A DNA stretch of 29,026 nt from a virus (taxonomy: Duplodnaviria > Heunggongvirae > Uroviricota > Caudoviricetes), in the IMG/VR virus record IMGVR_UViG_2671180727_000014, positions 1 through 29,026 of that record. One strand, 5' to 3'. Numbering within the stretch: position 1 is the first letter of the stretch; each line of letters opens with the position of its first letter. Below, piece after piece: positions 1 to 24,512 of this stretch. The translations under genes and the position numbers were made by a program. Below the pieces are notes generated by a model, which made no database searches, was not told the DNA's origin, and saw only the letters and a program-made list of their open reading frames with translations.

Positions 1-3590
<3,590 letters not shown>

Positions 3591-3796: not shown

Positions 3797-5032
3797 TTAA
3801 CCAAATATTTTTTGAACAACTTCACGAGCCGCTTGTGCAGAAGCTGAAGGGAGTTTGTTAATGAAAGAACGCTCAATACCTGTCACAAAGTCGCCTCGCA
3901 TCATTCCAATCTTGGCCGACAACAAAAGTTCACGAGGGCCAATTGGCTGACTGATAAGGTGTTCTTCGTATCCATCGCGAACGATACCGGCAAACTTAAC
4001 CATCTTTTCTGCGTATTCATCCACGATACCGGCATTTATCAACATGTTGATCTCTGCCTCTTTGCTCATGTATTTCACATTCGAAACGATGCCAAAACGT
4101 GAAAAGTTCGCGGCGTTCTGGATGTTTGTACCCTGGTACAAGCCGGTTTCATCACCAGAACCGTTTGTGTTGCCAGTGCCAATGAAAGCAAACCGTTCAT
4201 GCGGAGTAATGCGACGCCATTCTGGAGTTGCCTCTTTGATGACCAACGCCTCACCTTCCAGCACTGGCTGATACACGCCAAGAATTTGTGGAAACGCAAA
4301 GTCGTATTCATCCGCGAGGTAAACCCAGCCATGCTTCATTGCGAGCGCAAGCAAGCCAGGCTCGAAATACGTAGAGCCATCACGCGCCAGAATTTGCCCC
4401 GTAACATGTGCCTCTTCCATTGATGCTGTATGTTGGGCACGGATCAACGGACGATTGAGCAAAGCACATAGCTGTGTAGGCAATGACGATTTGCCTGTTC
4501 CTGCATGACCCCACAAATAGCCAGGTATGCCAAGTTCAAGCATCATGAAAATATCTTTGATCAGTTCGAAGTCGCCATATACGTAGCCCTTCTTCACTTC
4601 TGGAACGAACTCTGGATACGGCGTATTGACGTTGACGCTAACCATGAGCGGCGTCCCACGTTTTGTTCCGAGTTCTTCCACCGTTACGTTTAGCAGTTCG
4701 TGAGCTGCGACCAGATCTGTCTTGTACTCAACTGTGCCTGTGTAGCCTGGGCTACTGGTCAAGCCAGAAGATTTCGCCATTTCGCTTTTTTGCTCGGCAC
4801 GTTTAGCTTGAATTGCATCAAGTGCCTTTTTCGATAGCGTTGGTTCATCTGGAAACTGCGTTGTGTACATTTTCAGTACGGTGTCAGGATCGGCATCTTT
4901 TACTGACTCAGGAATGCCCTCGCAATTACCATTGGCTACATGGGACTTAAAATAGTGAAATGATTTGCCGCACCACTTGCAAACAAGGTAATCAGAAGGA
5001 TTTTTATCATTTTGCAGTGCAGTAGTAGTCAT
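3797..5032 (-). CDS. AAA+ ATPase of the MoxR/CobS-like class, 411 aa
   Basis: Walker A GHAGTGKSS and Walker B-like VYLADEYD; N-terminal Cys cluster (CKWCGKSFHYF...GNC); sits immediately downstream of a vWA protein on the same strand. Confidence 0.8.
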   Translation of the reverse strand: MTTTALQNDKNPSDYLVCKWCGKSFHYFKSHVANGNCEGIPESVKDADPDTVLKMYTTQFPDEPTLSKKALDAIQAKRAEQKSEMAKSSGLTSSPGYTGTVEYKTDLVAAHELLNVTVEELGTKRGTPLMVSVNVNTPYPEFVPEVKKGYVYGDFELIKDIFMMLELGIPGYLWGHAGTGKSSLPTQLCALLNRPLIRAQHTASMEEAHVTGQILARDGSTYFEPGLLALAMKHGWVYLADEYDFAFPQILGVYQPVLEGEALVIKEATPEWRRITPHERFAFIGTGNTNGSGDETGLYQGTNIQNAANFSRFGIVSNVKYMSKEAEINMLINAGIVDEYAEKMVKFAGIVRDGYEEHLISQPIGPRELLLSAKIGMMRGDFVTGIERSFINKLPSASAQAAREVVQKIFG

Positions 5033-5093: not shown

Positions 5094-5111
5094 GGTAAGT
5101 AGTTACTTATC
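5094..5111. promoter_or_regulatory. palindrome-family site GGTAAGTAGTTACTTATC upstream of the AAA+ ATPase gene
   Basis: TAAGTA-GT-TACTTA inverted repeat, about 60 nt upstream of the ATG at 5032. Confidence 0.35.
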
Positions 5112-5127: not shown

Positions 5128-7236
5128 TTACTTCAAAATGATACGAGATAGTTCAGTAACTACAGATGAACCAAGACTATCAACACTAGTTACCAGGGCA
5201 TGATTTGCGTAAAATCTCTCCGGTGCATCAGTCATGATGCCAATTGCCATCAAATCAATGTCAGTCTGCGTTTCAATTTGCTTCGTAACCGAACGCAAAT
5301 GGGCGTCAAAACCTCTCCCAACAGCCCACGGCGCGCCATCGCTCAGAACAAGCATGATCTTCCTGTCCTCCAAGCGACCGGAAAATAACGATGCAAGGCT
5401 GGCTATGCTTTCACCATCCACGTTATTAAGAAGTGGGAATGTGTAGCCTACGCACCCCATACGTGAGCGAACTTCGCGAGAATTTGCTTTTTCATTCCAA
5501 TTTTTGATGATAGGTAGCATTAAAGATTCAAAGCGAGAGAACTCATATTTGATAGCCTTAAGTTCTCCTGCTGCCATATGACTGCCAAATGTAGTGAAGC
5601 CGGTGATAATGTTGGGAACATTTATTCGATCAAGTGCATCGGCGATGGTATATGCACTTGCAAGAGCTAGTTTTATCGTTTCGCCACTCATTGAACCCGA
5701 TAAATCAATCACTTGTTGAACACAGGCGTTAACGGCTTTAGATTCTTCTTTTTTACGAAACACGCGATCATCATTCATTGTTAATCTGTAGATACTTGAA
5801 CCATGAATGCGCCCCCGACGCTGGCCAGGTATAAACTGAACTCTGTTTCTGCTTGCTATTGCACGTTCCAGGTCTTTTGCCAGCGTCGACGAAACACCTG
5901 ACGAAAGGTGCTTTTCAATATATTTGTCGAAGAGTTGGTTGCCTTCAGGAACGATGCGATAACGGCTGATTGGATATCCACCTAAATCAATATCGGAGAA
6001 TGTTTTAATAAGCCGTTTGATATGGGCTTCTGCCTGATCAATCGAGCCGATGAAGTCGTATGAGCGATTGTATGGCCTGTATTCGCTTTTCGAGCTTTCT
6101 GTTAACTCGCTTTTAATCGTTTCGGATAGCGCATCTTCTGTCATGCCTCCGACTTCATCTTCCATGCTATCCAACTCCTCTAAAGCCTCTTCCAGACTCA
6201 TTTTTGACGGAGTTGGAATGTCTGAAGAGCCGTCTTCTGTCGTTTTTCTTTTTTCGTGGTCAGCGGTTAATGATTCTGACGCCGCGTTATCAGAAGCATC
6301 AGAATCTGATACCGCTTTATCATTTTCTGTATCATCGAATATTGTTTCTGATGATTCAGGATTATCTGAATCATCACTGTCGTTATTATCATGTTTGTGC
6401 TTACTATGTGACTCTGATTTAATAGATTTGTGATTATCTAACGATGAGGGTGTCTCATGATCTTCGTTGTCTTCATTGTTTTCTCCAGAGGCATCCGTCT
6501 GGTCAGCGTCTGAAGGATCGGAAGTTTTTCCCGGAGCTGACTCCTTACCTTTGCTTTCACTTTCAGTGTCTTTGAGGATCTTAGCTATGGTCGCAGCCAC
6601 CTTTACACAATCCTCGGTGCAAGACATGTTACGCACGGCCACATCGATACCATGTTCTTTTAATAATGAAATTGGTTTCTCAATGACAGGCCAATATTCA
6701 TCCATGAAATCTACGAACGGTGCTTGGCCATCCCAGGCTCTTACAACCGGACAGAGAAAGAAGTTTAGAAAAAGCGCGCGCTGATCTTTGCCACAATAAG
6801 CAATAGCCTCTGAAGCCTTTGGTTTAAAGACTTTTTCGATTATAAGGCGCTGAGTTGCCATCAGATTACGTCTTGTTCCGTTAAAGACCTGACCCATTTT
6901 TCGCTCGATGAACACGTCTTCTAAGGCATTCCATAGCGACCAGGAAGGAACGCGTCCTTTTTCTCTCATTTTGTTGGACACACGAATATCGGTAAACAAA
7001 ATGTGAGCAACCTCATGATCGAGAAATCCGCGCACAGCATTCATCAATGCCGGTGTTGCGTTATCCGGGATTGATGGGATGTTTACGAGAATTGGCTCTC
7101 CATCATCGTTATAGCGTACATAAGCGTCGTCCCCTCGTTCTGCAACAGGGATGTTTTTACCTGAAAGGAGAGCGACTACTCGTTTTACACTGTCACGGAA
7201 GTCCTGAACCTCTTTGATGGAACGTTTTTTAGACAT
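5128..7236 (-). CDS. von Willebrand factor A (vWA) domain protein, CobT-like partner of the AAA+ ATPase, 702 aa
   Basis: C-terminal vWA/MIDAS motif VIDLSGSMSG (DxSxS); central ~130 aa acidic Ser/Asp/Glu-rich low-complexity linker (DSDDSDNPESSETIFDDTEND...). Confidence 0.8.
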   Translation of the reverse strand: MSKKRSIKEVQDFRDSVKRVVALLSGKNIPVAERGDDAYVRYNDDGEPILVNIPSIPDNATPALMNAVRGFLDHEVAHILFTDIRVSNKMREKGRVPSWSLWNALEDVFIERKMGQVFNGTRRNLMATQRLIIEKVFKPKASEAIAYCGKDQRALFLNFFLCPVVRAWDGQAPFVDFMDEYWPVIEKPISLLKEHGIDVAVRNMSCTEDCVKVAATIAKILKDTESESKGKESAPGKTSDPSDADQTDASGENNEDNEDHETPSSLDNHKSIKSESHSKHKHDNNDSDDSDNPESSETIFDDTENDKAVSDSDASDNAASESLTADHEKRKTTEDGSSDIPTPSKMSLEEALEELDSMEDEVGGMTEDALSETIKSELTESSKSEYRPYNRSYDFIGSIDQAEAHIKRLIKTFSDIDLGGYPISRYRIVPEGNQLFDKYIEKHLSSGVSSTLAKDLERAIASRNRVQFIPGQRRGRIHGSSIYRLTMNDDRVFRKKEESKAVNACVQQVIDLSGSMSGETIKLALASAYTIADALDRINVPNIITGFTTFGSHMAAGELKAIKYEFSRFESLMLPIIKNWNEKANSREVRSRMGCVGYTFPLLNNVDGESIASLASLFSGRLEDRKIMLVLSDGAPWAVGRGFDAHLRSVTKQIETQTDIDLMAIGIMTDAPERFYANHALVTSVDSLGSSVVTELSRIILK

Positions 7237-7334
7237 GGCTAATCCTTTGTTATGAAAACAAATTATTTACTAGTGTGTTTAATGTAGCACTGCGCGAACA
7301 GGGAACTAAGTCATTCGCGCAGGGAGAAGAGGGG

Positions 7335-7547
7335 TTAACAGATTCTGACGGCTAAAGACCCGGAGCCGGTATTGAGAAGCGTGAAGCGTTTGTTGTTAAG
7401 TTCGAATATAAAGCCAGTTGTGTCATTCACACCAACCTGAATCTGCTCATTCGGTAGATCGGTGAGGATGTCAGCTACACACTCATCAGCTAATTTCTGT
7501 ACGTGTCCGATCTCAAGAGCGATTAGGCTGGAAATAGTGGTGTTCAT
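7335..7547 (-). CDS. hypothetical protein (70 aa)
   Basis: ORF only; position between the vWA gene and the divergent regulatory region. Confidence 0.3.
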   Translation of the reverse strand: MNTTISSLIALEIGHVQKLADECVADILTDLPNEQIQVGVNDTTGFIFELNNKRFTLLNTGSGSLAVRIC

Positions 7548-7724
7548 TCAATCAATCCATTCTAACTTATACTATGGTAAGGAATACTACTAAAATTTGT
7601 ATCAATACTGAATACATTCATATCATATGCAAGTTGATTTTCTTACCTATTTTGGGCTAATTTTTCTCCGTGCAATGGCCTTTAACCGGTCTTTTAAGTG
7701 CCTATCGAAAAAAATGATAATAGC

Positions 7725-7767
7725 TTTACAACCCTAACCTTTGATGTAATATCGGTAAGCACTTACC
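7725..7767 (+). promoter_or_regulatory. sigma70-like promoter (TTTACA-16nt-TAATAT) with a perfect palindromic operator GGTAAGCACTTACC just downstream of the -10
   Basis: TTTACA at 7725-7730, TAATAT at 7747-7752, palindrome GGTAAG-CA-CTTACC at 7754-7767, about 30 nt before the ATG of the HTH gene at 7799. Confidence 0.5.
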
Positions 7768-7798
7768 AGAGAGAATTGAACGCGCAAAGGTTGTAACC

Positions 7799-8185
7799 AT
7801 GTCTGATAACAAGATTGAATTTATAGAAAGTCGCTACGCTGCTTTTATCGCAGGGTTGATTGAATCCTCACCTATGAGTCAGGCCCAAATAGCCAGACTT
7901 ATTGGTTACAAAAATGCCAACAACCTTTCTTTAATTAAAAGTGGCAAAATTCCTTTGCCTATCGATAAGGTTCGTCCGTTGGCGCTGGCGCTGGGTATTG
8001 AGCCAAGTCGTCTTATGATGATGGTGCTGGAAGAACGCCAACCTGAACTCGCAGCATTTTTATACAAAGAAGGCACCGCTCCTCTTAACGAGGACGAAAA
8101 ACAGGTTCTTGCTGCATATAACGAGCGATTCGGTAAAGAGAAAGGCGCATCACAAAAGGTTGTTGAGGCCATAAAGTCTCTATGA
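7799..8185 (+). CDS. helix-turn-helix (XRE/Cro-CI-like) transcriptional regulator, 128 aa
   Basis: HTH-like segment SQAQIARLIGYKNANNLSLIKSGKIP; divergent from and convergent-overlapping with the recombinase gene; palindromic operator in its own promoter. Confidence 0.6.
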   Translation: MSDNKIEFIESRYAAFIAGLIESSPMSQAQIARLIGYKNANNLSLIKSGKIPLPIDKVRPLALALGIEPSRLMMMVLEERQPELAAFLYKEGTAPLNEDEKQVLAAYNERFGKEKGASQKVVEAIKSL

Positions 8186-11655: not shown

Positions 11656-11742
11656 TGGCGGAGAGTAATGGAATCGAACCATCATCGCTTGCGCAATGGG
11701 ACGGTTTTCAAGACCGCTTGAGCACCATGCTCCCTACTCTCC
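11656..11742 (-). tRNA. tRNA-Ser (anticodon UGA), long variable arm, CCA encoded
   Basis: Reverse complement GGAGAGT...GCGGT-CTTGAAA-ACCGT...GATGG-TTCGATT-CCATT-ACTCTCC-G-CCA: 7-bp acceptor stem, anticodon loop CU-UGA-AA, T-loop TTCGATT. The D-arm is not fully resolved by hand. Confidence 0.7.
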
Positions 11743-11966
11743 GGCCGTTGTGGTGGCCGGTACTGAATCTCCGGCATACGGTGCAGCCAATTAGGACTAC
11801 GGACGATCACCGCTCGCGAAAGGGAAGATTTGCGGCCGCATTTCCCTAACATCCAAGAAAGCTATCGCATCAGTCTGCGAATCCACCACAACGGTAAGAT
11901 CACTACCTTTCGACCAGTCATTGTGCACATGAACGACGATTAACCGTAATGATCTTATCGTTGTAT

Positions 11967-12042
11967 TGGTGCCGGTTAGCGGACTCGAACCGCTGACATC
12001 CTGCTTACAAGGCAGGCGCTCTACCAACTGAGCTAAACCGGC
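11967..12042 (-). tRNA. tRNA-Thr (anticodon UGU), CCA encoded
   Basis: Reverse complement GCCGGTTTAGCTCAGTTGGTAGAGCGCCTGCCTTGTAAGCAGGATGTCAGCGGTTCGAGTCCGCTAACCGGCACCA: perfect 7-bp acceptor stem, anticodon loop CTTGTAA, T-loop GGTTCGAGTCC. Confidence 0.85.
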
Positions 12043-12046
12043 AATT

Positions 12047-12133
12047 TGGTGGGGAGTGATGGAGTCGAACCACCCGAGTCGCAATGACAGTAGATTTACA
12101 GTCTACCCCGCTGCCCCTACGGACTAACTCCCC
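12047..12133 (-). tRNA. tRNA-Tyr (anticodon GUA), long variable arm, CCA encoded
   Basis: Reverse complement GGGGAGT...GTAGA-CTGTAAA-TCTAC...GGTGG-TTCGACT-CCATC-ACTCCCC-A-CCA. Confidence 0.8.
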
Positions 12134-12138
12134 TAAAT

Positions 12139-12213
12139 TGGCGATGGTGGGTGGATTCGAACCACCGACCAGTTGGTTAACAGCCAACTGCTCTACCGCT
12201 GAGCTACACCATC
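12139..12213 (-). tRNA. tRNA-Asn (anticodon GUU), CCA encoded
   Basis: Reverse complement GATGGTGTAGCTCAGCGGTAGAGCAGTTGGCTGTTAACCAACTGGTCGGTGGTTCGAATCCACCCACCATCGCCA: 7-bp acceptor stem, anticodon loop CTGTTAA. Confidence 0.85.
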
Positions 12214-12406
12214 AATTCAGCACTGCCAGTATTTATTACTCAACAGTGCCAATCGCGACGGTTTAGTTTCTGCCAGGAAACGCACCGCTACTTGCACTTT
12301 TCGTTAGTGCCAGACGCTTTCGACTTCGCTCAATAGTAGAAGGCAAAATCTTTAAGTAGATGATGTTTCTGAGGACAGCACCTACTTTGTAATTTATACA
12401 ATGTGA

Positions 12407-12421
12407 TGTATGGAATCATTT
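12407..12421 (+). repeat. copy of the 15-mer ATGTATGGAATCATT (half-site of the lox-like inverted repeat)
   Basis: Exact 15-mer, also present at 13418-13432 (+), at 9382-9396 (minus orientation), and with one mismatch at 9400-9414. Confidence 0.6.
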
Positions 12422-12960: not shown

Positions 12961-12982
12961 GATAAGTAAGTAAATACTTATC
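12961..12982. promoter_or_regulatory. palindromic site GATAAGTA-AGTAAA-TACTTATC
   Basis: 8-bp inverted repeat arms; member of the dispersed TAAGTA/TACTTA palindrome family. Confidence 0.35.
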
Positions 12983-13282: not shown

Positions 13283-13427
13283 TTTCTAACCTTTGTTTCA
13301 TGAACTACCCGATACACACGCTTTCCGATGCACAGTGTTTTGGTTTTAAGTTCCTGCTTAATTAAATCACGACAGATGCCGAAGCCAATAAGGAAGCCAC
13401 CCATAAAAGCTAATGAGATGTATGGAA

Positions 13428-13643
13428 TCATTTTAACGCTCCTGATTCTACTAATTGCTGTAGCAATACTTTCCCTTTATCAGTTAACTGGTAGTTGGCC
13501 GAGCACCACGTTTCAGAAACGTTTGCAACCAACCCTAAACGCTCTAACTTAGCTCGCGTTTTAGGCTTCCAGTACTCAGGGAACTCCGGCCACTTACTGA
13601 TTTCATGAAGCGTTTCTTTCTCCCTTTTACTTAATACGATCAT
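13428..13643 (-). CDS. hypothetical protein (71 aa), translationally coupled to the ligase gene
   Basis: Start ATG overlaps the ligase stop (ATGA overlap); hydrophilic composition. Confidence 0.5.
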   Translation of the reverse strand: MIVLSKREKETLHEISKWPEFPEYWKPKTRAKLERLGLVANVSETWCSANYQLTDKGKVLLQQLVESGALK

Positions 13644-18952: not shown

Positions 18953-18995
18953 GTGCTTTCCTTTGTTTTTTAAACAAATTGTTTTCTAGTATTAG

Positions 18996-19747: not shown

Positions 19748-19770
19748 GGTAGGTAGTTACTTACTTATCA
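19748..19770. promoter_or_regulatory. palindrome-family site GGTAGGTAGTTACTTACTTATCA; a second palindrome AATAAGT-T-ACTTATT lies at 19871-19887
   Basis: Read directly in the AT-rich divergent region between the 249-aa gene and the GIY-YIG gene. Confidence 0.35.
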
Positions 19771-20018
19771 CAATGAGCGGATGATAGCGACTGGTGGCAG
19801 TTTTTGGAAGTGGAAACGGAAGGGAGTTGTTCTGGTGGTGTCTTTTAAAAGACCTGCTTCCGTATATATTTAATAAGTTACTTATTATTTATATATACAG
19901 AAGCAGGCATAACTTGTCGTCTTAGACGCCCAGAAGCTCTACACTTTGAGCCTGTTAAATTGATTAAAAACTTATGTGTAAAATAGAACGCATTAGTCAG
20001 TAGCAAAGAGATGCAATA

Positions 20019-20786
20019 ATGGACGATTTATCGGTATACGCGAGATCATTGGATAAGGCTAAATACTATGTTTACTGTCTCTATGATACAGAAGACAAGA
20101 TGAAAAGACCGTTTTACATAGGAAAAGGCAAATCGACTCGTTGTCTCGATCACATCAAGTATCCCGATGACTCTCCCAAATCCATGCGGATCAAAGAACT
20201 TTTGGCTAATAAAAAATTAGGCATAGATATACTTCGTCATGGTATGGATGAAACCACAGCCAAACTTGTTGAGGCGACATGCATCGACCTTATGGGGGTC
20301 GGAGAGCTTACGAATAAGGTACGAGGAAGTGGTTCCATGATGGGCAGAATATCACTGGACGCCTACCATCACTTAGTGCTGCAAGAGGAAACTGAAATTG
20401 CTCCTGAGCACGCCGGTCTTGCCTTCCTGCTAAACAGCACCTACAAGTCAGGAATGTCCGCTCTGGCATTATATGAAGCTACGCGTGGCGTATGGGCAAA
20501 GGTTCCAAGAGACGAGAATCTCAAATATGCCTACGCTACATATGGTGGGCTGATAATGGAAGTTTATCAGATTGAATGCTGGGTCAAAGCCGGTTCTCAG
20601 CAGTACTTTACAAGGGATATAGCTCTTGGCCCCGACACAAAACGTTATGAATTTGTTGGCAGAATAGCCGATGAGCATATTAGAAAACTGTATGTAGGCA
20701 AATTAATCAAGAAGCCACCAAGCTACGGTAGCCCTTTTGTGAAGGTTGGGGTGGTTAGGACTGAACATAGTGTTAGCGCGGCATAA
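20019..20786 (+). CDS. GIY-YIG nuclease-domain protein with an uncharacterised C-terminal domain, 255 aa
   Basis: N-terminal GIY-YIG signature YYVYCLYDTEDKMKRPFYIGKGKSTRCLDH; the C-terminal ~150 aa has no motif I can name; solitary plus-strand gene with its own terminator. Confidence 0.65.
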   Translation: MDDLSVYARSLDKAKYYVYCLYDTEDKMKRPFYIGKGKSTRCLDHIKYPDDSPKSMRIKELLANKKLGIDILRHGMDETTAKLVEATCIDLMGVGELTNKVRGSGSMMGRISLDAYHHLVLQEETEIAPEHAGLAFLLNSTYKSGMSALALYEATRGVWAKVPRDENLKYAYATYGGLIMEVYQIECWVKAGSQQYFTRDIALGPDTKRYEFVGRIADEHIRKLYVGKLIKKPPSYGSPFVKVGVVRTEHSVSAA

Positions 20787-20802
20787 AGCTGACACTGTAG
20801 TT

Positions 20803-20840
20803 ATGCATTGGCGCAATGTACGCGCCAATGCATGATTTTT
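20803..20840 (+). terminator. terminator hairpin (12-bp inverted repeat ATGCATTGGCGC / GCGCCAATGCAT, 7-nt loop) followed by a T-run
   Basis: Read directly; sits between the convergent GIY-YIG gene and the ParA-partner gene. Confidence 0.6.
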
Positions 20841-21198
20841 AACCTTTCTTCATCAACTCTCGTTTGATTTCATCGGTACGCATCGTGACATCGGCAGCGG
20901 TGATCGCCTCGTTAAGTTTCACGATGTCCTCGATTTCCTGCGGTGTCTTCTCCGCAAGATGGAAAATAGCAGCACGAATCACGTCAGAACGAGTGAACTT
21001 CTCGAAGCGAGGGATGAACTTCATCATCTCCAGCAGTTCGAAGTATTCGTCCTCCAGTGACATTGTGCGGCTTTTAATTTTCTCTTTGCCACGAGTCGGG
21101 CGTCCCTGTGGTCTGACTGGTTGGCGCAAAGGAGTTGTGTTCTTAGCCGGTGCATCAGGCTCTTTGCGCTTTGCTAGGTCACCCATTTTCATGGACAT
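20839..21198 (-). CDS. small partition partner protein (ParG/ParB-like, possible ribbon-helix-helix), 119 aa
   Basis: Immediately downstream of parA and overlapping it by 1 nt; basic Pro/Arg-rich N-terminal tail followed by a compact domain (SRTMSLEDEYFELL...RSDVIRAAIFHLAE). Confidence 0.45.
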   Translation of the reverse strand: MSMKMGDLAKRKEPDAPAKNTTPLRQPVRPQGRPTRGKEKIKSRTMSLEDEYFELLEMMKFIPRFEKFTRSDVIRAAIFHLAEKTPQEIEDIVKLNEAITAADVTMRTDEIKRELMKKG

Positions 21199-21866
21199 TA
21201 TTCTTTTTCCTCCAGACTCAACAGATAATCTACAAATTCTTCAAACTCGGCTTCCGCCTTTTTGTCGCGCTCGCTACCGGTCATTTCAAAGATAGAACGA
21301 CCAGACTCTTCCGCATCATCATAGACGTTGCGGTTATATAGATTGACTGGCGCAGACTCGATGCCAAACGTCTCAACAATCTCTTTAGCCGCCAGAATGC
21401 GAGACACTTGTGATGGCAAAGCCGGACACTGGTTCATGACCGCGCGGACCTTCACTTTATCGTTTACATTACGAACATTGTCGATAATAGGATCGATATC
21501 ACGCAGAGATTTCAAATCACGACGCTTAGGACGAAGCGGGATAATGATAACGTCGGCCATCAGCATCGCTTGTCGCTGAATTTCGGAGTCGAAGCCACCA
21601 GCATCTACCACTACAAACTCAGCTCTACCCTGAAGCGATTTTAGGTGCTTAATGATGTCATCCTGAACGTATGCAAAAGGAATCAGCTCAAGGTCTTCGT
21701 TCTGTCGACGGTCTTCACACCAGCTCGTTGTCGTGCGCTGAATATCTATATCGGTAATATAAACCTTCTTCTTCTTTTTGACTTTCAGGCAAACGGCAAT
21801 TTGCTGGGCAACGGTGGATTTGCCAGGCCCGCCCTTTGTGCCGCCAACCACAAAGATCTTGGTCAT
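21198..21866 (-). CDS. parA: ParA/Soj-family partition ATPase, 222 aa
   Basis: Deviant Walker A KGGPGKST (IFVVGGTKGGPGKSTVA) and Walker B VVVDAGG. Confidence 0.85.
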   Translation of the reverse strand: MTKIFVVGGTKGGPGKSTVAQQIAVCLKVKKKKKVYITDIDIQRTTTSWCEDRRQNEDLELIPFAYVQDDIIKHLKSLQGRAEFVVVDAGGFDSEIQRQAMLMADVIIIPLRPKRRDLKSLRDIDPIIDNVRNVNDKVKVRAVMNQCPALPSQVSRILAAKEIVETFGIESAPVNLYNRNVYDDAEESGRSIFEMTGSERDKKAEAEFEEFVDYLLSLEEKE

Positions 21867-22184
21867 TGGAGAGTTCCCTTTGCGTATATAATTATCGTCT
21901 GAAACAACTTGTTTTCTTATATGTGATATAGCCTAAATGCCTACGGCTGCGGTGTAAAGGTTAAATGGTAGGTTGTGATTAACAATTGGCAATCATAGCT
22001 TGTATTTGTCTGTTGAAAAAAGTAACAATGACCTCTATATTACAAGTACGGTGATATGCCGTACACAATTTGATAATGCACACGTAATGGGCTATAGCCT
22101 TTTAAAGTAATTTTTGAGTCGAAAACTCAGTTTGAACAGAGGAGATTGATGGCCTTCCTACATCACGGCCATCAGGAGGAATAC

Positions 22185-22454
22185 ATGTCAGCACTAAAAA
22201 AGCAGCGCATCGATTTGAGATTAACCGATGACGATAAAAGCATCATCGAGGAAGCTGCCGCAATGTCTAACCAGAGCATTACTCAGTTTATGGTTAGCAG
22301 TGCATCTGAACGTGCCGTGAAAGTTATAGAGCAACACCGTAGACTAGTTCTGAATGAAGAATCCTGGAATCTGGTTATGGACGCTATAAGCAATCCTCCG
22401 GCACCGAACGACAAGCTGAAACGAGCTGCTGATCGTCTGAAAAGCATGGAGTAG
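22185..22454 (+). CDS. DUF1778-type ribbon-helix-helix antitoxin (TacA/AtaR-like), about 90 aa
   Basis: RIDLRLTDDDKSIIEEAAA...SITQFMVSSASERA and the NPPAPNDKL motif typical of antitoxins paired with GNAT toxins; AGGAGG ribosome-binding site before the ATG at 22185 (ORF track starts at 22146). Confidence 0.75.
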   Translation: MSALKKQRIDLRLTDDDKSIIEEAAAMSNQSITQFMVSSASERAVKVIEQHRRLVLNEESWNLVMDAISNPPAPNDKLKRAADRLKSME

Positions 22455-22461
22455 TTTACTC

Positions 22462-22983
22462 GTGAGCAATACAACGATAGAGATTTTCTCTGGAGAGAAA
22501 GATTATGATCTAAACGGTTTTGATTGCGGCGAAGAGTCACTAAACGCCTTTTTAGCCAACCACTTAAAAAGGCAGCATGAGGGAAAAATTCTTCGTGCTT
22601 ATGTGCTTTGCACTCAAGAAGAAAGGCCAAAAGTGTTAGGATATTACACTTTGTCAGGTAGTTGTTTTGAAAAGGAGTCCTTACCTTCAAGAAGCAAACA
22701 AAAGAAGGTTCCTTATCGGAATGTTCCAAGTGTTACTTTGGGTAGGCTGGCTTTGGACAAGTCCCTTCAAGGTCAAGGATTTGGCTCAATGCTTGTAACA
22801 CATGCAATGCGCGTTGTGTACAATGCATCTCTTGCTGTAGGCATTCATGGACTTTTCGTTGAGGCGTTAAATGACAAAGCCAAGGCGTTTTATAAAAGTT
22901 TAGGCTTTATCCAGCTGGTTGGTAACAACGAGCGTTCTTTGTTCTATCCTACAAAATCTATCGAAAAATTGTTCGAAGAATAA
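22462..22983 (+). CDS. GNAT-family acetyltransferase toxin (TacT/AtaT-like), 173 aa
   Basis: GNAT fold motifs (RLALDKSLQGQGFGSMLV...), start 8 nt after the antitoxin stop; classical antitoxin-then-toxin order. Confidence 0.75.
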   Translation: MSNTTIEIFSGEKDYDLNGFDCGEESLNAFLANHLKRQHEGKILRAYVLCTQEERPKVLGYYTLSGSCFEKESLPSRSKQKKVPYRNVPSVTLGRLALDKSLQGQGFGSMLVTHAMRVVYNASLAVGIHGLFVEALNDKAKAFYKSLGFIQLVGNNERSLFYPTKSIEKLFEE

Positions 22984-22986
22984 TGT

Positions 22987-23008
22987 GTTCCCCTCATTTG
23001 AGGGGAAC
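22987..23008. terminator. hairpin between convergent genes (10-bp stem GTTCCCCTCA / TGAGGGGAAC, 2-nt loop)
   Basis: Read directly, between the toxin stop (22983) and the o-spanin stop (23016); no strong U-tract. Confidence 0.45.
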
Positions 23009-23015
23009 TTCGACA

Positions 23016-23231
23016 TCACCAACCACAAACCCTCTCTCCCATCGTATTGTGAAAAAGGATTTGGCGTTCGGTTTCTTCAGTCATTACATCATTATTGCTG
23101 ATATAGATAGGCTCAGCCCCATCGCAGAACAACACGCTGGCTGTTTGTGGTTTAATGACGCACCCACTTATCATACAACTCACGATGAACGGCAGAAGCA
23201 TCTTTCTGACGTATTTTACTGCTCGTCTCAT
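23016..23231 (-). CDS. putative o-spanin (outer-membrane lipoprotein), overlapping the 3' end of the i-spanin gene out of frame
   Basis: Signal peptide with lipobox MLLPFIVSCMISGC; start embedded in the upstream gene as in Rz/Rz1-type overlapped spanins. Confidence 0.4.
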   Translation of the reverse strand: MRRAVKYVRKMLLPFIVSCMISGCVIKPQTASVLFCDGAEPIYISNNDVMTEETERQILFHNTMGERVCGW

Positions 23232-24495: not shown

Positions 24496-24512
24496 GGTAG
24501 GTAAGTACTTAC
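24496..24512. promoter_or_regulatory. perfect 12-bp palindrome GTAAGTACTTAC (with flanking GGTAG) upstream of the lysis cluster; a candidate -10 TATGAT lies downstream on the minus strand
   Basis: Read directly, about 55 nt upstream of the holin-like ATG. Confidence 0.4.

Follow-up and report, generated by a model that had tools for sequence, protein, structure and literature searches.

The stretch of DNA analyzed here, referred to below as the window, comprises 29,026 nucleotides (nt) of a Caudoviricetes record in IMG/VR (IMGVR_UViG_2671180727_000014) and carries two gene pairs that point away from each other. One pair, on the (−) strand, consists of the partition gene parA and a small partner gene (together, parAB), and the other, on the (+) strand, encodes an antitoxin and a toxin (the TA pair). 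The window shares 99–100% identity with phage-plasmids of the SSU5 type, such as Cyrano/pLF82 and numerous E. coli plasmids, and the 2.4 kb around parAB and the TA pair match Escherichia phages CMS-2020a and Cyrano at 99.2% and 99.0% identity, respectively. The window is part of an SSU5-like Escherichia phage-plasmid of the Cyrano/pLF82 type, which is extrachromosomal. Specifically, nucleotide identity to Cyrano is 97–99% over the region and 100% over the TA cassette, and the gene order tail, lysis, slot, parA, partner, slot, helicase-primase is shared with SSU5, pHCM2, and Cyrano. We consider it very probable that the two gene pairs are independent units set back to back, namely a type Ib partition operon belonging to the backbone of the element and a TA cargo cassette of the KacAT/AtaRT type.

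Matches were found in 723 PLSDB plasmids, most of which are non-mobilizable, have a size of ~105–120 kb, and come from Escherichia, Klebsiella, Enterobacter, and Salmonella. The element occurs in ~5% of complete E. coli genomes (264 of 5,426), sometimes with resistance genes aboard, and all of the 266 places at which it was found lie on plasmids. The initial annotation had deduced an extrachromosomal phage-plasmid lifestyle from the stability genes, and this distribution bears it out; since none of the 266 places is chromosomal, the element is not one that integrates and is never episomal. In addition, Cyrano has been described as plasmid pLF82 of E. coli LF82, an SSU5-like element with siphovirus particles and ~5.5 copies per cell (PMC9928086), and a description of the SSU5 supergroup of phage-plasmids has been published as well (PMC7969092). 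The literature and hundreds of records already cover phage-plasmids of the SSU5 type, including their ParA and the KacT-type toxin of pLF82/Cyrano; because the element has already been described, the finding as such is real but ordinary. What the initial annotation observed proved mostly correct and its interpretation partly so, and the useful additions made here are a new label for the partner, a confidently assigned TA operator, two defence-collecting slots around parAB, and a putative operator that the partition operon shares with ~15 other promoters.

The partition genes and the toxin-antitoxin pair

The parA gene (21198 to 21866, [−] strand) encodes a 222-aa, ParF-like partition ATPase with a deviant Walker A motif. 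The initial annotation of a type I partition ATPase with KGGPGKST was thereby confirmed, and it can be made more precise, as the size of the protein and its layout, without an N-terminal helix-turn-helix domain, assign it to type Ib. The motif GTKGGPGKST starts at residue 8, contains the signature lysines K11 and K16, and aligns to NPKGGSGKTT of ParF, while the acidic segments ITDIDIQ and VVVDAGG, which we read as Walker A′ and Walker B (a naming of our own and not a tool output), align with VVDTDPQ and AIVDGAG. The motifs are intact on this alignment and in eight relatives, across which ParA is 68–100% identical and all motifs are invariant. Pfam matches were to MipZ/AAA_31/CbiA, the protein falls into PHROG 164 ("ParA-like partition protein"; E = 5e-51), and among solved structures ParF of TP228 comes closest (206 aa; E = 1.2e-10 over residues 9–199). 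By analogy with ParF, ParA would dimerize on ATP and use the nucleoid as its matrix.

A run of five lysines in ParA had been proposed as a slippage-prone tract. It reads CTTCTTCTTCTTTTT on the (+) strand and AAAAAGAAGAAGAAG on the coding strand (21765 to 21779), so that its longest homopolymer is 5 nt. KKKKK is kept in seven of the eight ParA relatives, and the proteins differ in length only at the C-terminal Glu tail; the alignment of these eight proteins gave no sign of slippage at this site, and the proposal was rejected.

The small downstream partner noted initially was confirmed as an open reading frame (ORF) of 119 aa (20839 to 21198, [−] strand), whose ATG overlaps the parA stop codon. 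In every homologue examined, down to 26% identity, the partner lies directly 3′ of a ParA of 221–229 aa, within a constant order of tail, lysis, parA, partner, and helicase genes. Alignments revealed a layout of an N-terminal MGDLAKR-type peptide, a variable linker, a basic PxRxPVRPQGRPTRGK arm, and the segments SRTMSLEDE and FTRSDVIRAAI; the MGDLAKR peptide is invariant among closer relatives, and only L8 and K10 hold among distant members. AlphaFold2 (AF2) predicted a disordered N-terminus (residues 1–25, per-residue confidence score [pLDDT] below 50) and helices at residues 48–59, 70–82, 86–97, and 101–118. The protein belongs to PHROG 5111, a function-unknown family, none of 13 members gave a convincing Pfam family at E-values up to 10, and neither phmmer nor a profile search against PDB sequences returned a relative. 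The family is tiny, with 18 representative clusters among 1.84 billion proteins in an exhaustive profile search. A comparison with CopG by hhalign was weak, in the register of the ribbon-helix-helix (RHH) fold (E = 0.017, probability 2.7%), as was a match to the family of aCcr1 (2.3e-4, below the cut-off), a named cell-cycle regulator that we take to have the RHH fold. The putative strand-helix-helix pattern and the RSDVIRAAI signature look like those of an RHH protein.

Because of its position and architecture, we call the partner a putative ParA adaptor that would bind the centromere. In this scheme, the MGDLAKR peptide and the basic arm would contact and stimulate ParA, and the SRTMSLEDE-helix-helix core, probably an RHH domain, would bind DNA as a dimer. 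The arrangement resembles the ParF-ParG system of TP228 and the delta-omega system of pSM19035, in which a ParA of ~200–230 aa without an N-terminal DNA-binding domain is followed directly by a small partner gene, and in the predicted structure the compact C-terminal domain of the partner is likewise preceded by an N-terminal tail that is flexible and basic. The partner differs from ParG in being longer and in having two additional C-terminal helices; moreover, the array of short repeats found upstream of parA in ParF-ParG systems is absent here, and the sole conserved dyad upstream of parA also occurs at ~15 other promoters of the element. In public records, the partner is mislabelled as "hypothetical" or "RelE/ParE toxin"; it represents a narrow orphan family tied to ParA and was not filed in the ParG family. 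The RelE/ParE-type toxin of the Cyrano record (annotation in OV696614.1, and the putative-toxin list in PMC9928086) is almost certainly a misnomer, given that no RelE/ParE Pfam match or PDB relative was found, that a disordered basic N-terminus followed by four helices and no beta-sheet is predicted, that no cognate antitoxin gene adjoins the partner, and that the gene overlaps and follows parA in every lineage.

On the (+) strand, the antitoxin gene (22185 to 22454) encodes an 89-aa RHH protein of the KacA/AtaR type with the NPPAPN motif, as initially annotated (Pfam TacA1, E = 6e-26, 90.7 bits against a cut-off of 21; KacA, E = 7e-42; AtaR, E = 1e-40). It contains the residues R8, D10, and R12, which in KacA read the DNA (PMC6698736). 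A longer ORF with a start at 22146/22149 is annotated in Cyrano, and it is disrupted in E. fergusonii by a 1-nt indel; the start is therefore placed at 22185, as had been assumed. After a gap of 7 nt follows the gene for the GNAT toxin (22462 to 22983), the second protein of the pair recognized initially. It encodes 173 aa that are homologous over their full length to AtaT (6GTS; E = 1.4e-79) and KacT (5ZGN; E = 4e-75), with the catalytic Y144 aligned to Y145 of KacT and the acetyl-CoA loop QGQGFG at residues 103–108, and by homology it is an aminoacyl-tRNA acetyltransferase.

The predicted TA promoter, which with 10 of 12 matches ranks first among promoter-like sites of the region, consists of a −35 element TTGAAA (22013 to 22018) and, after 17 bp, a −10 element TATATT (22036 to 22041), both invariant in an 87%-identical E. 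fergusonii cassette. The inverted repeat GTACGG-TGATATG-CCGTAC (22046 to 22064), noted initially as a feature of this region, starts 5 nt past the −10 element and therefore spans the predicted transcription start; the KacAT operator likewise lies across the transcription start (PMC6698736). GTACGG-N7-CCGTAC is unique in the window, where 0.02 matches are expected, and in the E. fergusonii cassette its arms are invariant while the spacer varies. Arms and 7-bp spacing equal those in the 27-bp DNA crystallized with KacA4KacT2 in 5ZGN, AAATGTACGGTTATTAACCGTACATGA (PMC6698736). From these sequence matches, the repeat can be assigned with confidence as the TA operator.

By sequence, the TA pair is thus a close homologue of KacA-KacT of K. 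pneumoniae and AtaR-AtaT of E. coli O157:H7, sharing with them gene order, the catalytic tyrosine, the acetyl-CoA loop, R8/D10/R12, and the arms and spacing of the operator. It differs from them in many substitutions across the alignments, in an operator spacer of TGATATG instead of TTATTAA as in KacA, and in being cargo of a phage-plasmid beside parA rather than chromosomal. By homology, the toxin would acetylate charged tRNA and block translation, the antitoxin would neutralize it in an A4T2 hexamer, and this complex would repress its own promoter at the GTACGG-N7-CCGTAC operator. Among the published LF82 RNA-seq counts considered here, those from lysogens were 592 for the antitoxin and 344 for the toxin (the pLF82 allele is 100% identical). 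The 5′ leader of the pair contains a perfect 10-bp palindrome, GGCTATAGCC (22090 to 22099), conserved in E. fergusonii, and the 137-nt leader RNA showed no significant fold (z-score 0.05). A small TGAGT/ACTCA hairpin at 22114 to 22132 in this leader is also conserved in E. fergusonii. The cassette ends with a GC-rich hairpin, GTTCCCCTCA-N-TGAGGGGAAC (22987 to 23008), which separates the toxin gene from the convergent spanin gene and is a likely terminator.

A backbone operon between two cargo slots

The limits of the TA cassette were determined by blastn against six relatives that lack it. Homology to SSU5 and to Klebsiella, Enterobacter, and Cronobacter relatives stops at 21964–21977, mostly at 21973, and resumes for SSU5, PhiR41_1, Klebsiella, Enterobacter, and Cronobacter at 23019–23035 in the spanin gene. 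These limits separate a backbone block with parAB (20839 to 21973) from a cassette of 1,045 bp (21974 to 23018, [+] strand) that fills a variable slot, bounded by parA and the lysis genes, and has its own predicted promoter, operator, and terminal hairpin. Because of the boundary at 21973, the 318-bp divergent region between the two gene pairs (21867 to 22184) is a composite of 107 bp of parA backbone and 211 bp of TA cargo. A copy of the cassette at ≥90% identity was found in 145 plasmids (143 from Escherichia/Shigella), while parAB is present and the cassette absent in ~114 of the 264 E. coli elements. The initial proposal that ParA and the TA pair form one maintenance module was accordingly not upheld, as the TA pair is a separate cassette found in only part of the Escherichia lineage.

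Several results weigh against the account of a partition operon beside a cargo cassette. ParA scored 115.7 bits against the NCBIfam model NF041546 (ParA_partition), below the cut-off of 180 bits, and by this curated threshold its sequence is placed outside that equivalog, as a diverged relative. The partner showed no detectable similarity to ParG or to any RHH family (hhalign probability against ParG, 0.1%), two AF2 runs gave monomer models of modest confidence (pLDDT 65–67), and fold searches with the predicted structure returned nothing; because of these modest models and empty searches, its fold and DNA binding are put forward here as predictions. Scans for direct, inverted, and tandem repeats revealed no iteron or repeat array typical of type Ib systems, either at 20700–22300 or in the whole window, and no experiments on partition or on this TA allele were found in the literature searched.

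The slot between parA and the lysis genes holds different genes in different relatives. Two unknown genes take the place of the TA pair in SSU5, PhiR41_1, Klebsiella p2, Enterobacter, and many further Klebsiella/Enterobacter members, a gene annotated as HEPN domain-containing is found in Cronobacter, an ApeA-like HEPN protein and a Peptidase_S24 gene are found in the distant locus L018, and the slot is empty in Klebsiella isolate 15. A second slot lies on the other side of parAB (19908 to 20838, [+] strand). In the window, it contains a GIY-YIG gene (20019 to 20786, [+] strand; Pfam LEM-3 GIY-YIG) that matches PD-T4-3, a single-gene anti-phage system, in PADLOC (E = 1.3e-23), followed by a hairpin with a perfect 12-bp stem (20803 to 20833). 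The same slot in Cyrano differs in holding a DUF2971/PDC-S31 gene, which is also found in Klebsiella and Enterobacter, and L018 has Abi_2/PD-T4-5 there. The slot genes in the loci compared include those for ApeA-like HEPN (PDC-S58; L018, 6650–8059), Abi_2/PD-T4-5 (L018, 10591–11559), HEPN (L007, 4715–5926), and DUF2971/PDC-S31 (L001, 5199–6002). These contents, which are known or candidate anti-phage genes, suggest that parAB is bracketed by two defence-type cargo hotspots.

We therefore regard the TA pair as cargo of one of these hotspots, although it may still stabilize the plasmid, as GNAT-RHH pairs on plasmids classically do. The cassette may stabilize by post-segregational killing or may act as defence cargo, and it would be dispensable for maintenance. 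That it serves mainly against phages or competitors, through abortive infection or a stress response, and is not an addiction device is a tentative reading to which we give somewhat less than an even chance. The company that it keeps in the two slots (PD-T4-3, PDC-S31/DUF2971, PD-T4-5/Abi_2, and the HEPN genes) and the ~114 elements that retain parAB without it point in this direction, as does the rise of its transcripts (Cyrano genes 26/27) from log2 ~9 in broth to ~15–16 in macrophages (~60- to 100-fold) in the portion of the LF82 data considered. However, none of the PADLOC defence models recognized the TA proteins, the classical role of such pairs is stabilization, and defence and addiction are compatible roles.

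Two further observations concern the slots. At the edge of the second slot lies a long imperfect inverted repeat (19829 to 19907), which most relatives in the comparison share (self-inverse blastn hits) and which may be a terminator or a recombination boundary. In plasmid MF554642.1, the TA cassette is apparently split in two, and the features listed there are aac(6′)-Ib-cr resistance genes.

The parA leader palindrome and the centromere

The 107 bp of backbone upstream of parA (21867 to 21973, [−] strand) hold a conserved promoter and leader, with a −35 element TTTACA (21953 to 21958), a 17-bp spacer, a −10 element TAGGCT (21930 to 21935), and the ribosome-binding site AAGGGA (21875 to 21880). 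Alignment revealed strong conservation with invariant blocks across the region, and the architecture TTTACA-N17-TAGGCT/TAGTAT also occurs in the distant loci L013 and L018. Judged from its sequence, this TTTACA-N17-TAGGCT pair is the predicted parA promoter, from which the partition operon would be transcribed. Fifteen bases beyond the −10 element lies a perfect 13-bp palindrome, AAACAA-N-TTGTTT (AAACAAGTTGTTT; 21902 to 21914), at about +8 to +21 from the predicted transcription start. It was found in nine relatives, with conserved arms and a free centre.

Further copies of the palindrome lie in the window 20 nt upstream of the helicase gene (18972 to 18984) and 20 nt upstream of the cobT homologue (7256 to 7268). 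The copies at parA and at the helicase gene are kept in SSU5, PhiR41_1, Klebsiella, Enterobacter, Cronobacter, E. fergusonii, and L013/L014, again with free central bases, and the parA leaders of L016, L017, and L018 have no palindrome. In the Cyrano genome (L010–L012), we found 18 sites at ≤1 mismatch, compared with 0.5 expected; 15 lie within the 14.25 kb of intergenic DNA (0.22 expected; maximum of 2 in 200 Markov simulations). The site listing has 16 outside annotated coding sequences, the extra copy overlapping the start of gene 105. Most of the non-coding copies follow a −10-like element and a CACCAnnAAGA stretch and precede a gene start by 12–74 nt. The parA leader palindrome would thus recur just downstream of ~15 other promoters, including those of the helicase, terminase, cobT, and ribonucleotide reductase beta (RNR-beta) genes. 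This conserved 13-bp putative operator, linking the partition operon to ~15 other promoters, is the new item reported here.

Expression in lysogens points to what the palindrome may do. Among the published, normalized LF82 RNA-seq counts considered here (background ~7), genes with the palindrome had values of 7 (terminase), 21 (helicase), 8 (cobT), 6 (gene 58), 13 (RNR-beta), and 7 (gene 101), while parA, the partner, and the gene after it had 50, 89, and 55, respectively. Since the palindrome-bearing promoters among these are near-silent and parAB is moderately expressed, the palindrome is most likely the operator of a repressor that acts in lysogens and that would repress parAB only in part, drawing it into a lysogeny regulon.

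As to the protein that binds it, we put slightly better than even chances on a dedicated phage regulator, either a master or an early-gene repressor, for which parAB would be one regulated operon among several and the partner would bind a centromere elsewhere. P1 offers a precedent with its C1 operators. Members of the regulon, among them terminase, helicase, RNR, and numerous small genes of early type, are silent in lysogens in the counts considered, and L018 shows that partner and palindrome are separable. A candidate binder is the CI-like repressor homologous to CYRAN_45, encoded at 7799 to 8185 of the window. Two points count against a dedicated regulator: no palindrome is present in the divergent region by the repressor gene (Cyrano 42575–42825), which is unusual for an autoregulated master repressor, and parAB is expressed in lysogens despite its site, as far as the LF82 counts considered go.

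P1 has dispersed C1 repressor operators and N15 has dispersed SopB-site centromeres, and the palindrome resembles both in being a short site repeated across a phage-plasmid genome near replication and lytic promoters. It differs from them in its unrelated sequence and its perfect 13-bp dyad, and from P1 in that here the partition operon itself carries a copy of the operator.

The initial annotation expected the divergent region to contain both the TA operator and the centromere; the operator is indeed there, and a centromere could not be defined, as no array was found. We regard a centromere within these 318 bp as rather unlikely. In its favour, the usual place of a type Ib centromere is upstream of parA, and the 107 bp of backbone are strongly conserved and contain the palindrome and two TAGGC direct repeats. 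On the other side, iterons are lacking, relatives that retain parAB do not have the right-hand 211 bp, which are part of the TA cassette, and neither L013 nor L018 keeps the TAGGC repeats. The short repeated elements noted initially, of the CTATAGCC type, did not hold up: this 8-mer has only two copies, which is at chance level (~0.74 pairs expected in 318 bp), and they belong to separate units, one (21927 to 21934) overlapping the parA −10 element in the conserved backbone and the other (22093 to 22100) lying in the acquired cassette.

Another possibility, which we judge improbable, is that the palindrome is bound by the ParA partner, acting like omega of pSM19035 as an autorepressor and global regulator, with the dispersed copies as multiple centromeres of the kind known from N15. 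Autoregulation at the parA promoter is the norm for type Ib adaptors such as ParG and omega, a dyad of 13 bp is of a length that fits RHH tetramers of the CopG kind, no other dyad in the 107 bp of backbone is conserved, and there is no other centromere candidate near parAB. Moreover, the partner is expressed in lysogens in which, by the counts considered, palindrome-bearing promoters are silent. However, L018 has the partner (41% identical, with the SRTxSLEDE strand) and the TTTACA-N17-TAGGCT promoter without the palindrome, which weighs against the partner as the binder, and L016 and L017 lack the palindrome as well; in addition, the element has genes for a CI-like repressor and further regulators, and a second class of dispersed palindrome exists. 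Less probable still is the complete version of this idea, in which the omega-like partner would keep lytic and replication operons silent in the lysogen and would also use ~16 palindromes as dispersed centromeres for ParA. If true, the segregation of the plasmid would be linked to its lysis-lysogeny state in the largest enterobacterial group of phage-plasmids.

The identity of the protein that binds the palindrome would give a handle on both the maintenance and the switching of these elements. The literature searched contained nothing relevant on a centromere or operator of SSU5. Phage-plasmids of the Acinetobacter AB group, considered as a means of uncoupling palindrome and partner, have a helicase homologue and no partner; they proved too divergent, with another dispersed palindrome, TAAGCGCTTA. 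For pMT1, where the helicase is expected together with a P1-type partition system, Yersinia was absent from the ten genera named among the matches listed.

Other dispersed elements and genes of the window

The second dispersed palindrome, (G)TAAGTA-N2-TACTTA, occurs in the window at 5095–5110, 12966–12981, 19749–19764, and 24497–24512. In Cyrano, it is found at ~10 loci, nearly all of them intergenic and just upstream of genes, and it looks like the operator of a second regulator. In the Acinetobacter plasmid pORAB01-1 (L019; 1700–4600 and 12004–12205), the palindrome of that group is promoter-proximal, and CTATATAGATTT direct repeats are located upstream of the partition gene. A 15-mer, AATGATTCCATACAT, is present five times in the window (3351–3365, 9382–9396/9400–9414, 12406–12420, and 13418–13432), with one inverted pair just upstream of the integrase gene.

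Two large ORFs on the (−) strand, at 5128–7236 and 3797–5032, match the CobT- and CobS-like genes of Cyrano by position and length, and they adjoin the repressor/integrase pair and a 560-bp intergenic region (7237–7798). Four tRNA genes were found at 11656–12213 ([−] strand), namely Ser-tga, Thr-tgt, Tyr-gta, and Asn-gtt, three of which, without Tyr, are annotated in the Cyrano record.

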